Shown: in pieces, positions 56,533-63,669 of the stretch
Position numbering within the stretch: the stretch's first letter is position 1
Layout of the letters: every line of letters begins with the position of its first letter
Source of the DNA: Candidatus Aenigmatarchaeota archaeon
GTDB taxonomy: Archaea > Aenigmatarchaeota > Aenigmatarchaeia > QMZP01
Direction of reading: 5' to 3'
DNA: 64,000 nt
NCBI GenBank assembly: GCA_043824495.1
Contig: JBDRSV010000010.1
Span: 1-64,000 of the forward strand
Notes under the pieces: generated by a model
Database searches by the model: none
Told to the model about the DNA's origin: nothing
What the model saw: only the letters and a program-made list of their open reading frames with translations
Program-made: the position numbers and the translations under genes

Positions 56533-57567
56533 ATGTATGAAGATAAGCCAATAATCAAGAATTCAGAAGTCTTTACAGACGAATTTCTCCCAAACACAAT
56601 TAACCATAGAGATGGGCAAATGAAAGCAGTGAGAGATGATCTAAATCCACTTCTAAATAATAAACCAGGAAGAAGCGTGTTCATTTTCGGTGCTCCAGGG
56701 ACAGGAAAGACTTCAACATCTAAATACATAATAAATGAGCTAGCTTCACAGTCTGTTTTTACAAGTTACATAAATTGTTGGAATACGAGTTCAAGATTCA
56801 AAATATTATACACAATTCTTCAGAATTTTGGAGAATCTCTGTCTATACACACAAAAGGAACTCCAACGCATGATCTTTTAGAATTACTTAAGAAAAAAGT
56901 CCAAGAAAAACAAGCAGTGATAATCTTAGATGAAGTGGATCAATTAGAAGATGATAAAATTTTGTATGATTTAATTATGATAGCAAATGTTAGTGTAATT
57001 CTAATAGCTAATTCAGAAACAGCATTACATGACAATGATCCTAGAATAAGAAGTAGATTAGCGTCTGCAGATACAATAGAATTTCCTAAATACAAGTCAG
57101 ATGAAATAACAGAGATACTCAAAGAAAGAGCAGAACTAGGTCTAGTTCCTGGTGTTGTGAAAAATGCACAACTAGAGAAAATAGCAGAGAGATCTTTAGG
57201 TGATTCTAGAATTGCAATTAATATTCTTAAAATAGCTTCGGAAGAAGCTGAGAAAAAAGATGAAGGAAAAATAACCGATGATGACGTAGAGAAAGCTTCT
57301 CCAAAAGCGATAGAACAAGGAAAGAAAAAGAGTATAGAAACATTGAATGATCACCAGAAATTGATATACTCTGTAATTAGTATGGGTGTCAAAACAGAAC
57401 CTTCTGAACTATACACAAAATATCAAGAAGAGTGTAAAAGAAAAGATATAGAACCTGTGAAAGACAGAACAATCAGAAAATATTTAGACAAAATGATACA
57501 ATATAAGTTAATTCTAGCTGAAGGCGAAGCTCGTTGGAGAACTTATTCTATCCAGAAAGCGCAATAA
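56533..57567 (+). CDS. cdc6: Orc1/Cdc6 replication initiator AAA+ ATPase
   Basis: GAPGTGKTS, YINC, LDEVDQL and DPRIRSRL motifs, C-terminal wHTH. Confidence 0.93.
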   Translation: MYEDKPIIKNSEVFTDEFLPNTINHRDGQMKAVRDDLNPLLNNKPGRSVFIFGAPGTGKTSTSKYIINELASQSVFTSYINCWNTSSRFKILYTILQNFGESLSIHTKGTPTHDLLELLKKKVQEKQAVIILDEVDQLEDDKILYDLIMIANVSVILIANSETALHDNDPRIRSRLASADTIEFPKYKSDEITEILKERAELGLVPGVVKNAQLEKIAERSLGDSRIAINILKIASEEAEKKDEGKITDDDVEKASPKAIEQGKKKSIETLNDHQKLIYSVISMGVKTEPSELYTKYQEECKRKDIEPVKDRTIRKYLDKMIQYKLILAEGEARWRTYSIQKAQ

Positions 57568-57570
57568 ACT

Positions 57571-57640
57571 CTTATTGGCACGAGTATCTAAACCACATCA
57601 ATAGAGCTTATTGGCATACTGGCATACTGGCACGGTCCTA
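57571..57640 (+). promoter_or_regulatory. Two copies of the TTATTGGCA-(TACTGGCA)n-CG motif upstream of the dead recombinase
   Basis: CTTATTGGCACG at 57571 (n=0) and 57607-57640 (n=2), then TTTATAT at 57649. Confidence 0.6.
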
Positions 57641-57685
57641 GGATCCAGTTTATATCTGATGAAAATCTACTCTAAAGTGATCCCT

Positions 57686-58423
57686 ATGCGTCTAGTACCC
57701 CAACTCTTAGATAAAATCGAACCCTTCGTTGATGAATTTAGGCAGTGGCCTAAAGGAGACATTCCTTCTTCCAAAGAAGGTAAGTGGCTTCAAGTTCAAA
57801 TGTCTCAATTCACACCACCTTTTGTCATTGAGAAGAATTATGAAAATAGTTTCATATCTTCTTCACATGTGGTAGATACAGAATTACTTGATGCTACCTT
57901 GAAGAGAAAAACAAATCTTCTCTCCAAGCAAGAAATAAGAATACTTATTGGTTCAACAAAAAACTTGAAACATAAAATATTATTACAACTATTGTATGGT
58001 TGTGGTCTTCAGATATTCGAAGCTATTGAGCTAAAGATAGATGACATCAACCTGAAAGAGTGTAGAGTCAACGTAGGAACGAGAACAGTTCCTTTATCAA
58101 CAAAAATGGTTCCACAACTGGAATTCTTGTTTAGATACACACAAAAACCAGATAATAATCACCTGTTTCCCAACTGGAACGGAGGTCACGTAACACCAGA
58201 AGATGCAGAACAGATCGTGAAATATGCATTCGCTGCTGCTGGGTTGAGACCAGTTTCCCCACACGCTCTTAGACACAGCTTTGCTTCACACCTCCTCGAA
58301 TACGGCGTCAGAATAGGAATAATACAAACACTTCTAGGAAATTATGATGCAACAAAAATGAGACACATGAAAATTTCAGAAGAAATGATCAAGAACGTGA
58401 AGAGTCCTCTGGATAAACTTTAA
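57686..58423 (+). CDS. Catalytically inactive tyrosine-recombinase paralogue
   Basis: GLQ replaces GLR, GKGxK loop deleted, LLGN replaces LLGH, no nucleophile Tyr. HALRHS and KSPLD retained. Start could be 57659. Confidence 0.85.
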   Translation: MRLVPQLLDKIEPFVDEFRQWPKGDIPSSKEGKWLQVQMSQFTPPFVIEKNYENSFISSSHVVDTELLDATLKRKTNLLSKQEIRILIGSTKNLKHKILLQLLYGCGLQIFEAIELKIDDINLKECRVNVGTRTVPLSTKMVPQLEFLFRYTQKPDNNHLFPNWNGGHVTPEDAEQIVKYAFAAAGLRPVSPHALRHSFASHLLEYGVRIGIIQTLLGNYDATKMRHMKISEEMIKNVKSPLDKL

Positions 58424-58883: not shown

Positions 58884-59720
58884 ATGAAAGAACTCTTAAT
58901 ACGCTTGGAAAATGAACTAAAATCTCGCGGCTTCAGCAGAAAGACCGTAAAATCCTATTTATTTCACGTTTCAACTTTCTTGCGTCACATATCAACAGAT
59001 TCCACACAAGAAGAGATACAAAGATATTTCATACAATTAGCAGAAAACGCAGATCCCAGAACAGTTAATCTGCGCATAAGCGCAGTTAAATTCTTTTACA
59101 AGAACATCCTACACAGAAACCTCTACATAAACTACATGAAGAGACCCAGAAAAATACCTGAAGTTTTAACTGTACAAGAAGTCATGTATATGATATCGTC
59201 CACGACTAACCCAAAACACAGAACTATAATTGAAATGTTATACGGCTGTGGACTCCGGGTATCAGAAATAACTAAAATAAAAAAATCTGACATAAACATT
59301 CCAGAAAGAATAATATTCATAAGACAAGGAAAGGGAATGAAAGACAGAATTGTTCCTCTTCCTCTTACACTAAAAGAGATTGTATATAATTTCAGTGTAG
59401 ACGACTGTCCATATGTTTTCCAATCAGAAAGAGGAGGAAAGCTAACGGAAAAAACAATACAGGTGATAGTGAAAAATGCAGCCAAGAAAGCCGAAATAAA
59501 AAAGCGCGTATCTCCACATACTCTCCGTCACAGCTATGCAACCCATCTCCTCGAATCAGGAACAGATATTCGTATAATTCAACGTCTTCTAGGTCATTCC
59601 TCGGTCAAAACCACAGAACTCTATACTCATGTTTCAAGAGCTCTTCTGAAAAACATAAAAAGTCCTCTAGACTTCGTAAAAACATTCAATATAGAACATT
59701 CTAATCCAAACAATGCGTAG
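58884..59720 (+). CDS. Xer/IntI-like tyrosine recombinase (intact) without the IntI-specific insertion
   Basis: N-terminal SAM-like ELKSRGFSRKTVKSY. GLRVSE, GKGMKD, HTLRH and LLGH...TTELY all present. Short YVFQSERGGKL segment where IntI carries its extra domain. Confidence 0.93.
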   Translation: MKELLIRLENELKSRGFSRKTVKSYLFHVSTFLRHISTDSTQEEIQRYFIQLAENADPRTVNLRISAVKFFYKNILHRNLYINYMKRPRKIPEVLTVQEVMYMISSTTNPKHRTIIEMLYGCGLRVSEITKIKKSDINIPERIIFIRQGKGMKDRIVPLPLTLKEIVYNFSVDDCPYVFQSERGGKLTEKTIQVIVKNAAKKAEIKKRVSPHTLRHSYATHLLESGTDIRIIQRLLGHSSVKTTELYTHVSRALLKNIKSPLDFVKTFNIEHSNPNNA

Positions 59721-59737
59721 AAACACTAGTTATAAGA
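59716..59737 (+). other. attI-like site (core GTTATAA at 59729-59735)
   Basis: GTTATAAGA pairs perfectly with TCTTATAAC at 61685-61693. No upstream R''/L'' arm found. Confidence 0.7.
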
Positions 59738-59791
59738 AATCGTTGGTCTTGATTGGTTAAAGGAGATCGCCGCCATTTGGCTTCGCCAAAG
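59729..59791 (+). repeat. Cassette leader repeat, copy 1
   Basis: Identical to 63578-63630 apart from a 10-nt insertion. Contains TAAAGGAGATCGCCGCC and the hairpin TTTGGC-TTC-GCCAAA. Confidence 0.9.
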
Positions 59792-59923
59792 ATAGCCTGC
59801 CTTCGGCAGTATATAGAAAGGGTATTCTTTGTTTTCGAGGACATAGGGAAGTAGTACTCATAAATGGGCATAATAAAGATTAAAAATAACACAACACCTA
59901 TATACTACTAAGGGATTGATAAT

Positions 59924-60845
59924 ATGAATCAAATAGAAATTAATAGAGAAAATCTTGAAAAGAGACTTAAGCAAGTAGGGCTTAGTTCAGATATATACAG
60001 CGTCAAACCAAAAAAATTTATTAGAATTAATACGAGACATCCAGTGAAAATAAGAGAATTACAGGAAAGACTTAATAGAAATTATGGAATCGAAGTAGAA
60101 TTTATAGAAACATGTATTGAGGAAATTTATGAATCAACAAACTCGGATATTGGAGGGTGGATTAGTGGTAAAAAGAACGAATTCTTTAATAAAAATTATT
60201 TTATTCAAGATTTAGCAAGCGTTATTTGTGTTAAAGAACTTGATTTAAAAGAGGGTCAATCTCTTCTTGAAACATGTGCAGCGAGAGGTTTCAAGTCTAT
60301 TCTGGCTCATGATTTAACACATGGAAAATTAAGAATAACAGCATTAGATATAGATCCTAAAAAAATATCAAATAATGATGGGATTCTTTAAAAAATTTGG
60401 AATAAATGCAGAAACCCGATTAATGGATTCCACAAAATTTCAAGGTCAAAAATACGATAGAGTACTGGTTGATGCTCCTTGTTCTGGTGAAGGTGTGACT
60501 GTGGTGTATGATGAGAAATTGAGAAGAGATGTTAGTGGATTTGATAATGTTGTGCAATATTCACAAGAAGATGTTGAAAGATTTTCAGAATTACAAGGAA
60601 AACTTTTACAAAGCGGTTTTGACCACTTAAAGAAGAGTGGAATCCTAAATTACGCCACCTGTACCTTGAATAAGATTGAAAATGAAAGCGTAATCCACGA
60701 ATTTCTTCAAAGAAACGGCGATGCTTCAGTTGTTAACTCTAATATTGATAAATATGGTATCAAGCACAAGGTTTCTAATCTAGGGGTAAGAATCTTGCCT
60801 GGAAAAACTAAGGGCTTTTACTTTACAAAAATTATAAGGAGATAA
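59924..60845 (+). pseudogene. RsmB/NOP2 RNA m5C methyltransferase split by a +1 frameshift in an A7 run (60359-60365)
   Basis: ORF1 has motif I-like ETCAARGFKS. ORF2 has VDAPCSG and YATCT. Removing one A gives ...DPKKYQIMMGFF... Confidence 0.85.
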
Positions 60846-61578: not shown

Positions 61579-61595
61579 GGCGGCGATCTCCTTTA
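61579..61595 (-). repeat. Inverted copy of the 17-bp leader motif
   Basis: GGCGGCGATCTCCTTTA is the reverse complement of 59758-59774 and 63597-63613. Confidence 0.9.
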
Positions 61596-61795
61596 TTAGT
61601 TATGTGCACAACGACTCTGCGGCTGCTTCGCAGCCTTGCCTCGCATGGCGAAACCATTTCAGAATAGGAGAAATCCATGCTCGGTCTTATAACAAGCAGC
61701 TTGGCGGTTCGCTGCTGCTCTCCCAAATTCGATCTTTGCTATGAAGGCGGTCTCTTAAAACTAAAACATTTATAAACTGGATACAAATTATTGTT

Positions 61796-61993
61796 ATGAG
61801 CGAATTGAAGATGCATGGAAAACACCAAACTCAATGGGTTACTATATCCCTTGATGAATATGAGAGCATGAAGGCTACTCTCGAGATTTTATCTAGCCCT
61901 AAGGCGATGGAGAAAATTAGACGCGGTGAACAGGAAAGACTAGCTGGAAAGGGGCAGAAACTAGAAGATGTGAAGAAAGAACTTGGAATTTAG
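61796..61993 (+). CDS. Phd/YefM-RelB-like antitoxin
   Basis: ISLDEYESMKATLEILSSP..M..I motif. Confidence 0.8.
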   Translation: MSELKMHGKHQTQWVTISLDEYESMKATLEILSSPKAMEKIRRGEQERLAGKGQKLEDVKKELGI

Positions 61994-62244
61994 AAATCAT
62001 CTTTATGTAATATAGTATCTATTTGAACTAATTTCTCTTTTTCAATGATTACGTAGATGATTCTCCATCGCTTTTCAAATCTTAATTCCCACTTTCCCAC
62101 CAGAGGCCATCTTAGTGGCTTACCATAAATATCTGGATATTCCTTTAACTTTTCAATTTTCTTGAAAAATCGTCTTTGCATTTCTGCATCAAATTTCTTC
62201 AGATCCTTCTTGGCCTCTGGCATTATCTCGATATCATAACTCAT
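61990..62244 (-). CDS. RelE/ParE-family toxin
   Basis: GKPLR..L.G.WELRF...WRIIY motif. Confidence 0.9.
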   Translation of the reverse strand: MSYDIEIMPEAKKDLKKFDAEMQRRFFKKIEKLKEYPDIYGKPLRWPLVGKWELRFEKRWRIIYVIIEKEKLVQIDTILHKDDF

Positions 62245-62328
62245 GAAATATAATTAAATTCTATACTAATAAATCGGCCGCCCTTTAAAAGACCGGACTT
62301 TGCCAACCTGCTGATGTTAAATAACATA

Positions 62329-62883
62329 TTACTCGGCAGACCGCATTTTGAATTCAGAATCTAAAATACTCATTATCAAATCATTGTAAAACTTCCCATC
62401 TATATAGGCGTTGTCTCTGAGAATCCCATCCACCTTGAAGCCGCATTTTTTATAAGCGGCAATTGCTCTTTTATTGAAATCTAAGACAACTAAGCTGATT
62501 TTATGGAGTTTTAATTGTATAAATCCGAATTTTAGAATGCAATTAATTGCATCGGTTCCATATCCCTTTCCGAAATAGTCTTGAAGAATTCCTATTGCTA
62601 ATCTGACATTTTTATCTTGTTTATTGATTTGATGGAGACGACAACTTCCAATATATTTGTTATCTGATTTTTTGATGATAGCAAATGACAATTCCGATTT
62701 CTGAGCAATTGCCTCTTTGAATCTTTCTTTTACTTTATTTAGTGGGGTAGGTTTCCATTTCTTTGAGCCTCCACACATTATAGTGAATTCTTTGCTTTCT
62801 CTTGTCTTTGCAAAATCTTTGAAATCGGATTCATGTAACTGTCTGATATAAACATTATCCCCATTAATTTTTGGAAGTTTCAT
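62329..62883 (-). CDS. RimJ/RimL-type GNAT acetyltransferase (cassette 62317-62988)
   Basis: YFGKGYGT..I, N.RAIAAYKKCGF..DG motifs. Confidence 0.92.
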   Translation of the reverse strand: MKLPKINGDNVYIRQLHESDFKDFAKTRESKEFTIMCGGSKKWKPTPLNKVKERFKEAIAQKSELSFAIIKKSDNKYIGSCRLHQINKQDKNVRLAIGILQDYFGKGYGTDAINCILKFGFIQLKLHKISLVVLDFNKRAIAAYKKCGFKVDGILRDNAYIDGKFYNDLIMSILDSEFKMRSAE

Positions 62884-62981
62884 GTATTTTAGTGGATTTT
62901 AGAGGTTATATGATTAACGGTCTGCCTCCGTCATACGCTTCGTCGCTTCGCTCCTCGGTCTCAAACCAAGGTTTTCGACTT

Positions 62982-63064
62982 ATTTAACAGAAGTTTAAAG
63001 GTTCCGCTACGCTGCACCCACATTTTTTCTAAAAGAAAAACGTCTTATAACCCTAACGTTAAGT
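62982..63064 (+). other. attC-like site 2 (83 nt)
   Basis: ATTTAAC-AGAAG-TTTAAA-GG ... TTTTTCT/AGAAAAA hairpin ... TC-TTATAA-CCCTAAC-GTTAAGT. Confidence 0.8.
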
Positions 63065-63111
63065 GAAATTGCTACGAGCAAATTTAAATGTCTATTCTCT
63101 TTACATTAATT

Positions 63112-63522
63112 ATGGTTGATTTTATCAGAAAGAAATCCGAAAAGCCCACATTTTCACAGAAAGGGCTTGATGGATATCAATTTCTTTTAGAAAACAAGAA
63201 TGTAGAAGTATATTTCGTGGACGTGAAAATGGGGCATGATAATTACATTATTAGTAAAAAAATTACTCACATCTATTTTGTTATAGAAGGCGAAGGATTT
63301 TTCGATATAAGCGGAACTAAATTTGATGTTAAACTTGGAGATTTCATAGAAGTTCCGCCAAATAAGGAATATTGTTATTCAGGAAAAATGAAATTGTTAC
63401 TTATCATGAACCCGCCGTGGTTTGAAGGAAACGAAGAGATTACTAAGAAAAATCTTCTGTTGAATAGTTTGCCCTCCGCAACTCTCCCTTCGGTCGTCAC
63501 GGATCACTTAACAAAAGATTAA
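63112..63522 (+). CDS. Cupin-domain protein (cassette 63059-63512)
   Basis: H.YFVIEGEG.F.I.G...GDFIEVPPN cupin motifs. Reads into the att site; stop lies in the L'' arm. Confidence 0.85.
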   Translation: MVDFIRKKSEKPTFSQKGLDGYQFLLENKNVEVYFVDVKMGHDNYIISKKITHIYFVIEGEGFFDISGTKFDVKLGDFIEVPPNKEYCYSGKMKLLLIMNPPWFEGNEEITKKNLLLNSLPSATLPSVVTDHLTKD

Positions 63523-63584
63523 GACACTCACTACGTTCGTCCTAATTTCCTAAAGGAAACTAGTCTTAACCTCGAATGTTATAA
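63506..63584 (+). other. attC-like site 3 (79 nt)
   Basis: ACTTAAC-AAAAG-ATTAAG-AC ... TTTCC/GGAAA hairpin ... GT-CTTAAC-CTCGAAT-GTTATAA. Confidence 0.85.
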
Positions 63585-63630
63585 GAAATCGTTGGTTAAA
63601 GGAGATCGCCGCCATTTGGCTTCGCCAAAG
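63578..63630 (+). repeat. Cassette leader repeat, copy 2
   Basis: GTTATAAGAAATCGTTGGTTAAAGGAGATCGCCGCCATTTGGCTTCGCCAAAG. Confidence 0.9.
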
Positions 63631-63669
63631 AGGTTTAATATAAATATGAATTAAAACAAAGTTTAATTT

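Follow-up and report, generated by a model that had tools for sequence, protein, structure and literature searches.

We analyzed a 64,000-nt stretch of DNA (hereafter, the window), the first 64 kb of the 106-kb contig JBDRSV010000010.1 in an assembly from a Candidatus Aenigmatarchaeota archaeon (GCA_043824495.1; 1.01 Mb, 35% G+C, 80% complete) whose closest public relatives are metagenome-assembled genomes (MAGs) of Woesearchaeota and Pacearchaeota. Close to its right end, the window contains a gene for a XerA-type tyrosine recombinase of 278 aa without the insertion specific to integron integrases (IntI) (58884..59720, plus strand), an attI-like docking site that overlaps the stop codon of this gene (59715..59740, plus strand; ...GTAGAAACACTAG|TTATAAGAAAT) and, downstream, gene cassettes with three sites that resemble attC, the recombination site of integron cassettes. 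We lean toward the view that these are recombination sites bounding the cassettes of a small integron-like array placed right after the XerA-type gene, and that they belong to a family of attC-like hairpins. An initial annotation of the window had described all three sites as foldbacks of the form AAC + 5 nt + 6 nt ... 6 nt + 7 nt + GTT, devoid of extrahelical bases in the L box, and had proposed that the 2-nt difference between the two spacers guides strand choice by an integrase without the I2 helix. As detailed below, the observation is partly confirmed and its interpretation partly supported.

Inverted core boxes, with R'' ending in AAC and R' starting with GTT, occur in all three sites, which lie on the plus strand, and every site string of the initial annotation was found where it had been placed. 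The 5' half of site 1 (61685..61745) consists of R'' CTTATAAC, an A and AGCAG-C-TTGGC, followed by TTCGC...CTCTCCCAAATT, an interior motif in common with the family consensus; AAC occupies positions 61691-61693 and is separated by AAGCA from GCTTGG (61699-61704). The 3' half (62262..62327) reads GCCAA-C-CTGCT, the surplus bases GA, T and R' GTTAAATAA, with CCAACC at 62303-62308, TGCTGAT and then GTT at 62316-62318. Site 1 is no compact foldback, as some 600 bp with two open reading frames (ORFs) separate its arms. These two small convergent ORFs (61796..62244) overlap by 4 nt and are placed in the variable interior of the site; in Pfam, the first (61796-61993, plus strand) has a weak, antitoxin-like match to Phd/YefM, and the second (61990-62244, minus strand) is ParE/Gp49-like. 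Site 2 (62980..63069) extends from R'' TTATTTAAC to R' GTTAAGTG and has a degenerate stem (AAC 62986-62988, AGAAG, TTTAAA 62994-62999 ... TTATAA 63045-63050, CCCTAAC, GTT 63058-63060). Site 3 (63504..63589) extends from R'' CACTTAAC to R' GTTATAAG and has a 7-bp core stem, TTAAGAC/GTCTTAA (AAC 63510-63512, AAAAG, ATTAAG 63518-63523 ... CTTAAC 63565-63570, CTCGAAT, GTT 63578-63580).

The boundaries of these sites match each other exactly. GTTAAATAA, the R' box of site 1, is the exact reverse complement of TTATTTAAC, the R'' box of site 2; GTTAAGTG, the R' box of site 2, is that of CACTTAAC, the R'' box of site 3; and GTTATAAG, found at both 59729 and 63578, is that of CTTATAAC at 61686-61693. 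Tails and next R'' boxes in the window are thus complementary over 9, 8 and 8 nt, and such complementarity is the classical signature of integron cassettes. Furthermore, a 54-nt direct repeat (plus a 10-nt indel) starts exactly at the GTT at 59729, 9 bases past the recombinase stop, and again at the GTT of site 3. Its first copy (59729..59792, plus strand) forms the leader of the first cassette, and the second (63578..63631, plus strand), with a 10-nt deletion, follows the last site. Searches of the region for tRNAs and Rfam families found nothing relevant, so the repeat is not a tRNA target.

Because MAFFT misaligned sites with long loops, we built a covariance model (R1) from an alignment of eight sites of similar length and searched it against genomes. 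R1 identified about 110 homologous sites, spread over 44 of the 121 related genomes searched, as well as sites in 37 of 151 genomes sampled across the phylum, and the family is common in Nanoarchaeia, that is, DPANN archaea of the Woese- and Pacearchaeota type. The matches often form same-strand arrays, for example, 12 sites in one genome. In at least 11 genomes (G000, G005, G008, G011, G013, G027, G028, G038, G054, G055 and G058), no more than 3 kb separates a site from a XerA-type gene, which is either co-oriented with the array, the arrangement of the window, or divergent from it, that of classical integrons. Relatives' sites form strong hairpins (for one of them, z = -3.2 and -3.4), and the elements of the family stand out as GC-rich islands in AT-rich genomes. 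A simple search with the pattern TAACAGCSRTT yielded few matches, in one genome no more than in its control.

Within the window, sites 2 and 3, both seeds of R1, scored 60.2 and 69.4 bits, respectively. A profile built without the window sequences matched site 2 with E = 1.7e-8 and site 3 with E = 0.029, and these were its sole matches in the 1-Mb assembly. The two halves of site 1, split by 600 bp, resemble the family consensus by eye only; site 2, site 3 and both halves of site 1 are mutually alike in sequence. We consider the window sites to be real because of the complementarity of the R tails, the direct repeat at GTT and the homology to a family of sites elsewhere. The loose 5/7 pattern, in contrast, has about 70 matches per strand in the 106-kb contig, as expected by chance, so that the register alone carries little information, and a structure-only scan for AAC...GTT hairpins was non-specific in this AT-rich genome and missed sites 2 and 3.

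We then characterized the geometry of the family by determining, for each site, the best duplex (DNA parameters) between the 24 nt after AAC and the 28 nt before GTT, a procedure independent of the alignment except for the two anchors. Both anchors were found in 78 sites, 66 of which were well formed. The loop beside the R helix was most often 1x4 (25 sites) or 1x3 (17), followed by 2x3 and 1x5 (6 each), 3x6 (4) and 2x4 (3). The 3' arm was the longer one in 65 of the 66 sites, so the one-sided asymmetry of the spacers reported for the window is a property of the family; its size is variable, with a surplus of +1, +2, +3 and +4 in 8, 21, 30 and 6 sites, respectively (mode +3). The stem begins 1 nt past AAC, the 5' loop is a single A in 48 sites, and the commonest 3' loops are ATAT (15), GAT (13, as in site 1), CGA (5) and ATAC (5). 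The first helix, with a median of 11 bp, is uninterrupted in 41 sites, whereas any bulge of the 5' arm within these 11 bp was detected in 11, at no fixed position. Run on attC-aadA7 and on three archaeal attCs from the supplement of PMC9668308, this parser returned loops of 5x6 or larger and single-base bulges on the 5' arm in all four, as in the classical attC, in which the central spacer is unpaired (5x6) and the R''-L'' arm has 1-3 bases flipped out (PMC8946536). The absence of L-box extrahelical bases and the non-canonical geometry thus hold both for the window and for the family at large.

The family consensus is TAA-C-A-GCGA-TTAAACG ... CGTTTAA-TCGC-ATAT-G-TTA, with R boxes made of TAAC/GTTA and about 5 variable bases. 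On the R''-L'' arm, 6 nt separate TAA from TTA (TAA-CAGCGA-TTAA), both in the consensus and in all three window sites, which is the spacing of the Xer/dif core (PMC8371274). The L'-R' arm has 8-9 nt in this place, and its 1-4 surplus bases, mostly 2-3, lie directly ahead of G|TTA. The surplus is uniform within arrays (1x3 in 8 of 8 sites on G058:C9, 1x4 in 5 of 5 on G105:C11, 1x5 in 3 of 3 on G094:C15, and mostly 2x3 on the contigs encoding proteins P0018 and P0026) and differs between arrays. For 71 of the 78 sites, the predicted folding energy is lower on the bottom strand (mean -17.3 vs -15.5 kcal/mol), a hint, and only that, that the folded bottom strand could be the substrate.

Several lines of comparison indicate that pairing within these sites is selected for. 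In an alignment of 84 distinct sites (A4), TAAC/GTTA is present in 81-82 of them, and all 11 pairs of the main stem show double (compensatory) changes, which need selection for pairing of both halves. Paired bases fill 94% of the stem cells, and the covariation score reaches 0.49 compared with 0.136 after shuffling (0 of 500 shuffles attain the observed value) and at most 0.074 for slid partners; these numbers are generous, given the fitting of A4 to the model and the kinship of the sites, which are related by descent and hence not independent as counts, although the contrast with the slid controls is still large. From the aligned sequences, then, we take selection for pairing of the stem to be established. 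Between two small hairpins, the sites also contain an unpaired interior motif, CTCC.CCCAAAT, the sequence of which is conserved across genera in A4 (in the window, for example, at 63025-63035).

The function of the sites as cassette boundaries is similarly apparent from their order along the arrays. Across 39 pairs of successive sites, the five variable bases that follow GTTA are complementary to those ahead of the next TAAC at 3.9 of 5 positions on average, compared with 1.9 for random pairs and 2.1 for the two ends of the same site, and the match is perfect in 20 of the 39 pairs, vs 3% of random ones. The sequences of the central region differ among the sites of a single array. Judged by these boundaries and neighborhoods, it is clear that the sites of this family bound cassettes and sit beside Xer-type genes.

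With the family as a reference, the three window sites can be placed within it. We slid the two arms of each site, ungapped, against each other over 11 bp. Site 1 has a sharp optimum at +2 (1x3 loop), with 10 of 11 Watson-Crick pairs, and site 3 is also best at +2, with 8-9 of 11 pairs and an outer helix that is half eroded; in this register, neither site needs an extrahelical base on the R''-L'' arm. For site 2, the register is ambiguous (+1, 2x3 loop, 7 of 11 pairs; +2, 1x3 loop, 6 of 11). Accordingly, the 5/7 register originally assigned to all three sites holds for sites 1 and 3, and the L arms indeed pair without a bulge but not without mismatches (5/6, 4/6 and 5/6 paired). The two clear +2 sites fit the array-wise uniformity seen in relatives, and the 5/7 register is the surplus value of this particular array. 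As the surplus ranges from +1 to +4 across the family, a fixed 2-nt asymmetry does not stand as a recognition code: the covariance model of homologous sites that the initial annotation had suggested revealed variable spacing, the very outcome that it had named as evidence against such a code. Nor is the 5-nt spacer unpaired in the family, where four of its five bases form the outer stem.

The protein encoded next to the docking site is, by its equivalog score and by a continuous alignment with XerA, assigned to the archaeal XerA-type recombinases. It passes the cut-off of the NCBIfam equivalog XerA_Arch (225.8 bits; cut-off 220) and aligns in one piece with XerA of P. abyssi (4A8E; E = 3.7e-46), and it fails that of the IntI model TIGR02249, which it matches in two stretches (208.6 bits; cut-off 265). 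The alignment with V. cholerae IntI4 (2A3V) is likewise in two pieces (residues 5-161 to 6-171 and 186-262 to 241-317). It skips IntI4 residues 171-241, opposite which some 45 residues are absent, so the IntI-specific domain is missing from this protein. Six homologues with 58-63% identity show the same split against IntI and lack the insertion as well, which bears out the proposed absence of the I2 insertion. All motifs of the recombinase align, and the protein is intact. In a protein tree, the array-linked recombinases were not resolved as a single clade; this label requires 4 changes on the tree, and the window protein is on a long branch. We dropped the claim that the enzyme of the array is the only, housekeeping XerA of the cell, the genome being 80% complete.

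Loci informative on the docking site were taken from relatives' genomes and from contigs encoding closer recombinase homologues. Their layout is a recombinase gene, a docking site ...TA|GTTAnnnnnAAT, and then cassettes, and the contigs frequently end there. The layout of the window docking site and a similar left half (GTAGAA..CTA|GTTA) recur at L073, L069, L070 and L067. Two of these loci, L069 and L070, encode an identical recombinase and identical upstream genes and have the same sequence up to GTTAGTTTCAAT, the GTTA box of attI, just past which they diverge. XerA homologues from a collection of species-representative contigs showed no docking site past the stop codon. The cassettes at L069 and L070 can be compared directly: the first one encodes two DNA methyltransferases at L069 (10870-18900) vs two genes without a family match on record at L070 (10870-13434), and both have a common 9-bp R box (GTTAGTTTC / GAAACTAAC) and a common start of the following cassette, which at L069 carries a GmrSD gene.

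These features suggest how such sites might be recombined. By folding, one DNA strand would present its R and L helices as mimics of the paired arms found in a Xer core. Cleavage by the recombinase would then fall at TAA|C of the R' side, like that of integrons, followed by exchange of a single strand at the attI-like site. Next to the crossover, the surplus bases could mark the polarity of the hairpin and thereby specify strand and orientation, replacing the reading of bulges by I2 in IntI. Flipped-out L-box bases would have no part in this process because the enzyme is without the domain that reads them. As a tentative extension, which we advance with considerably less confidence than the identification of the array itself, an insertion-less Xer-type enzyme may read the polarity of a folded, single-stranded cassette site from the 2-3 surplus bases of the central region by the cleavage point, rather than from flipped-out L-box bases. 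This would represent a second, simpler solution to the choice of strand and orientation during cassette capture, one that may resemble the state from which IntI, with its bulge-reading domain, evolved.

Several points weigh against this interpretation. Folding of both strands, another analysis suggested by the initial annotation, showed that, as single-stranded DNA, sites 2 and 3 are not folded more stably than their dinucleotide shuffles, whichever strand is taken (z = 0.6 and 0.04 for site 2, -0.3 and -0.8 for site 3), and the register of site 2 is ambiguous. R1 finds sites similar to its seeds, so that scarcity of bulges describes this family and not every attC-like site in these genomes. 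Consistent with this caveat, the Nanoarchaeota attC tested in PMC9668308 is of the classical, bulge-bearing kind. The kinship of the sites and the fitting of A4 to the model temper the covariation analysis, as stated above, and an array whose sites share one surplus value may owe this to descent of the sites from a common ancestor rather than to the specificity of the enzyme. Finally, recombination at these sites is predicted from sequence, and the idea that surplus bases govern the choice of strand is proposed by analogy.

Other explanations of the same data have to be considered. The sites could be ordinary attCs served in trans by a classical IntI that is encoded elsewhere or was not assembled, as in clusters of attC sites without an integrase (CALIN), the odd spacing being meaningless drift. 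The R boxes do fit the attC consensus, G000, the genome of the window, is, at 80% completeness, not the only incomplete one, and most published archaeal arrays are without a detected IntI and have been read in this way (PMC9668308). We nevertheless find such an arrangement quite unlikely: arrays begin beside XerA-type genes in the 11 or more genomes listed above, and a conserved, covarying geometry across the family would not result from drift. The search for IntI also points in this direction, with no protein above the cut-off in any of the 121 relatives' genomes (completeness of 90% or more in 45), although the control genomes yielded none either, so the sensitivity of this search is not demonstrated. 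Somewhat less improbable, but in our view still doubtful, is recombination in duplex form, as at dif or in Xer-dependent modules, with the R''-L'' half (TAA, 6 nt, TTA) as a plain Xer core and the hairpin as incidental. The dif-like spacing of this arm (PMC8371274), the XerA score of the enzyme and the attI-like sites, which also consist of an arm, 6 nt ending in G and TTA, would all suit such a mechanism. It leaves the compensatory changes in all 11 stem pairs without a cause and gives no role to the complementarity between the R tail and the next R'' box, and the differing central regions within one array would block the classical two-step Xer exchange.

That the hairpins act as RNA, for instance, as terminators or processing signals at cassette ends, seems to us highly improbable. 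Covariation would suit RNA as well as DNA, and GC-rich islands in AT-rich genomes are compatible with such a role; however, Rfam is empty in the region, the genes within cassettes can have either orientation with respect to the site (GNAT, at 62329-62883, is on the minus strand, for example), and the cassette-boundary signature and the point of divergence at attI are features of the DNA. A different kind of alternative is that the window array is a decayed relic, with sites that no longer recombine and a +2 register that is inherited history. The arm duplexes of sites 1, 2 and 3 have energies of -12.3, -5.5 and -7.2 kcal/mol, respectively, where the median of the family is -13.9, and sites 2 and 3 fold at the level of shuffles. 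In addition, there are no further sites elsewhere in the genome, site 1 has the 600-bp insertion, and the first cassette contains a NOP2/Sun-type methyltransferase gene that is probably frameshifted (see below). The recombinase, on the other hand, is intact, neither the R boxes nor the complementarity of the tails (8-9 nt) shows any flaw, and site 1 retains 10 of its 11 stem pairs. As a complete account of the array, decay is therefore a possibility to be kept in mind rather than the explanation that we expect to hold. Still, given the eroded stems, the insertion in site 1 and the frameshifted gene, some degree of relic state is fairly likely, and, as predicted from their stems, the window sites may recombine poorly or not at all. 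Such a state is compatible with the integron-like interpretation that we favor.

The proposed array can be compared with several known systems. Archaeal integrons were described by Ghaly et al. 2022 (PMC9668308), who reported six IntIs, all with the extra domain, and most of the arrays, including all listed from Nanoarchaeota, without an IntI. With integron attC/IntI systems, the present array shares the inverted core boxes (R'' with a final AAC, R' with an initial GTT), an imperfect palindrome that, in the family at large, is able to fold, same-strand arrays of one- or two-gene cassettes, an R' tail that belongs to the next cassette, a docking site beside the recombinase gene and a 3' spacer that exceeds the 5' spacer. 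It differs in that the recombinase is without the IntI insertion and in that, unlike in the classical attC, the stem of the family starts 1 nt from AAC and is mostly continuous, the sole regular irregularity being the 2-3 surplus bases by G|TTA on the other arm. The interior motif conserved across genera also has nothing comparable in the variable interior of attC. Like the archaeal XerA/dif systems (P. abyssi, 4A8E; T. acidophilum, 5HXY), the array involves an enzyme of the same protein family and a 6-nt central region on one arm; whereas dif occurs once per chromosome as a duplex, the hairpin sites here are numerous and arranged in arrays.

Two further parallels come from bacteria. In the integration of CTX phage by XerCD, a folded, single-stranded attP is recombined at dif with the exchange of one strand. 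There, too, a Xer-type enzyme without an accessory domain acts on a folded strand, the halves of which imitate a core with an irregular central region, as we propose here; in contrast to the entry of a phage into the chromosomal dif of a bacterium, the archaeal loci have cassette arrays, a dedicated docking site and an archaeal XerA-type enzyme. The pdif or Xer-dependent modules of Acinetobacter plasmids are small modules, including toxin-antitoxin pairs, with Xer-type sites in alternating orientation. They resemble the window array in their small gene modules, toxin-antitoxin pairs among them, bounded by Xer-type sites, but the pdif sites are short 11-6-11 duplexes without long conserved stems, and we know of no covariation or hairpin interior in them.

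Our literature searches found no description of XerA-linked arrays or of this site geometry, and such arrays are also absent from a 2021 review on tyrosine recombinases of archaea (PMC8371274). In classical integrons, flipped-out bases and the IntI-specific domain are held to explain the choice of strand and orientation, and the archaeal family does without both. A family with neither bulges nor the IntI domain, which displays a regular asymmetry at the crossover point and is located by genes for Xer-type enzymes, makes the minimum needed for recombination of hairpin sites testable with defined substrates, and raises the question of whether integrons arose from Xer systems of this kind. For annotation, the consequence is that tools requiring the IntI domain will label these arrays as orphan.

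The genes around the sites are diverse. Upstream of the recombinase region lies an Orc1/Cdc6 gene (56533-57567), followed by a degenerate paralogue of the tyrosine recombinase (57611-58423) that is co-oriented with the intact gene and is matched by Xer models in its C-terminal half only (101 bits; cut-off 220). A small toxin-antitoxin-like pair separates the paralogue from the intact recombinase gene at 58884-59720. The first cassette carries, at 59924-60845, an RsmB/NOP2/Sun-type RNA methyltransferase gene in two overlapping frames (59924-60391 and 60375-60845), which likely reflects a frameshift.

The leader of the first cassette is part of a longer element of 115 nt (GTTATAAGAAATCG...GGAGATCGCCGCC...two small GC hairpins), which is found at 59722-59835 and, as a third, fuller copy of the direct repeat, on another contig of the same genome (C4:29592-29706, also L003:11593-11707). 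These two copies are 95% identical over 115 nt, and the occurrence at 63578-63631 is truncated. The C4 copy is flanked by unrelated genes and preceded by a palindrome, GGTATAAC-ACCTT-GTTATAAG. The element may be a cassette leader, a second docking site or a small RNA. A second, GC-rich inverted repeat was observed outside the R boxes of cassettes, with one arm near the cassette start and the other about 30-100 nt ahead of the R'' box (59758-59774 / 61579-61595 in the window; likewise at L013, L016 and L107:1560-1990), so that an outer helix could arise past the attC-like site in a cassette that is circular or folded.

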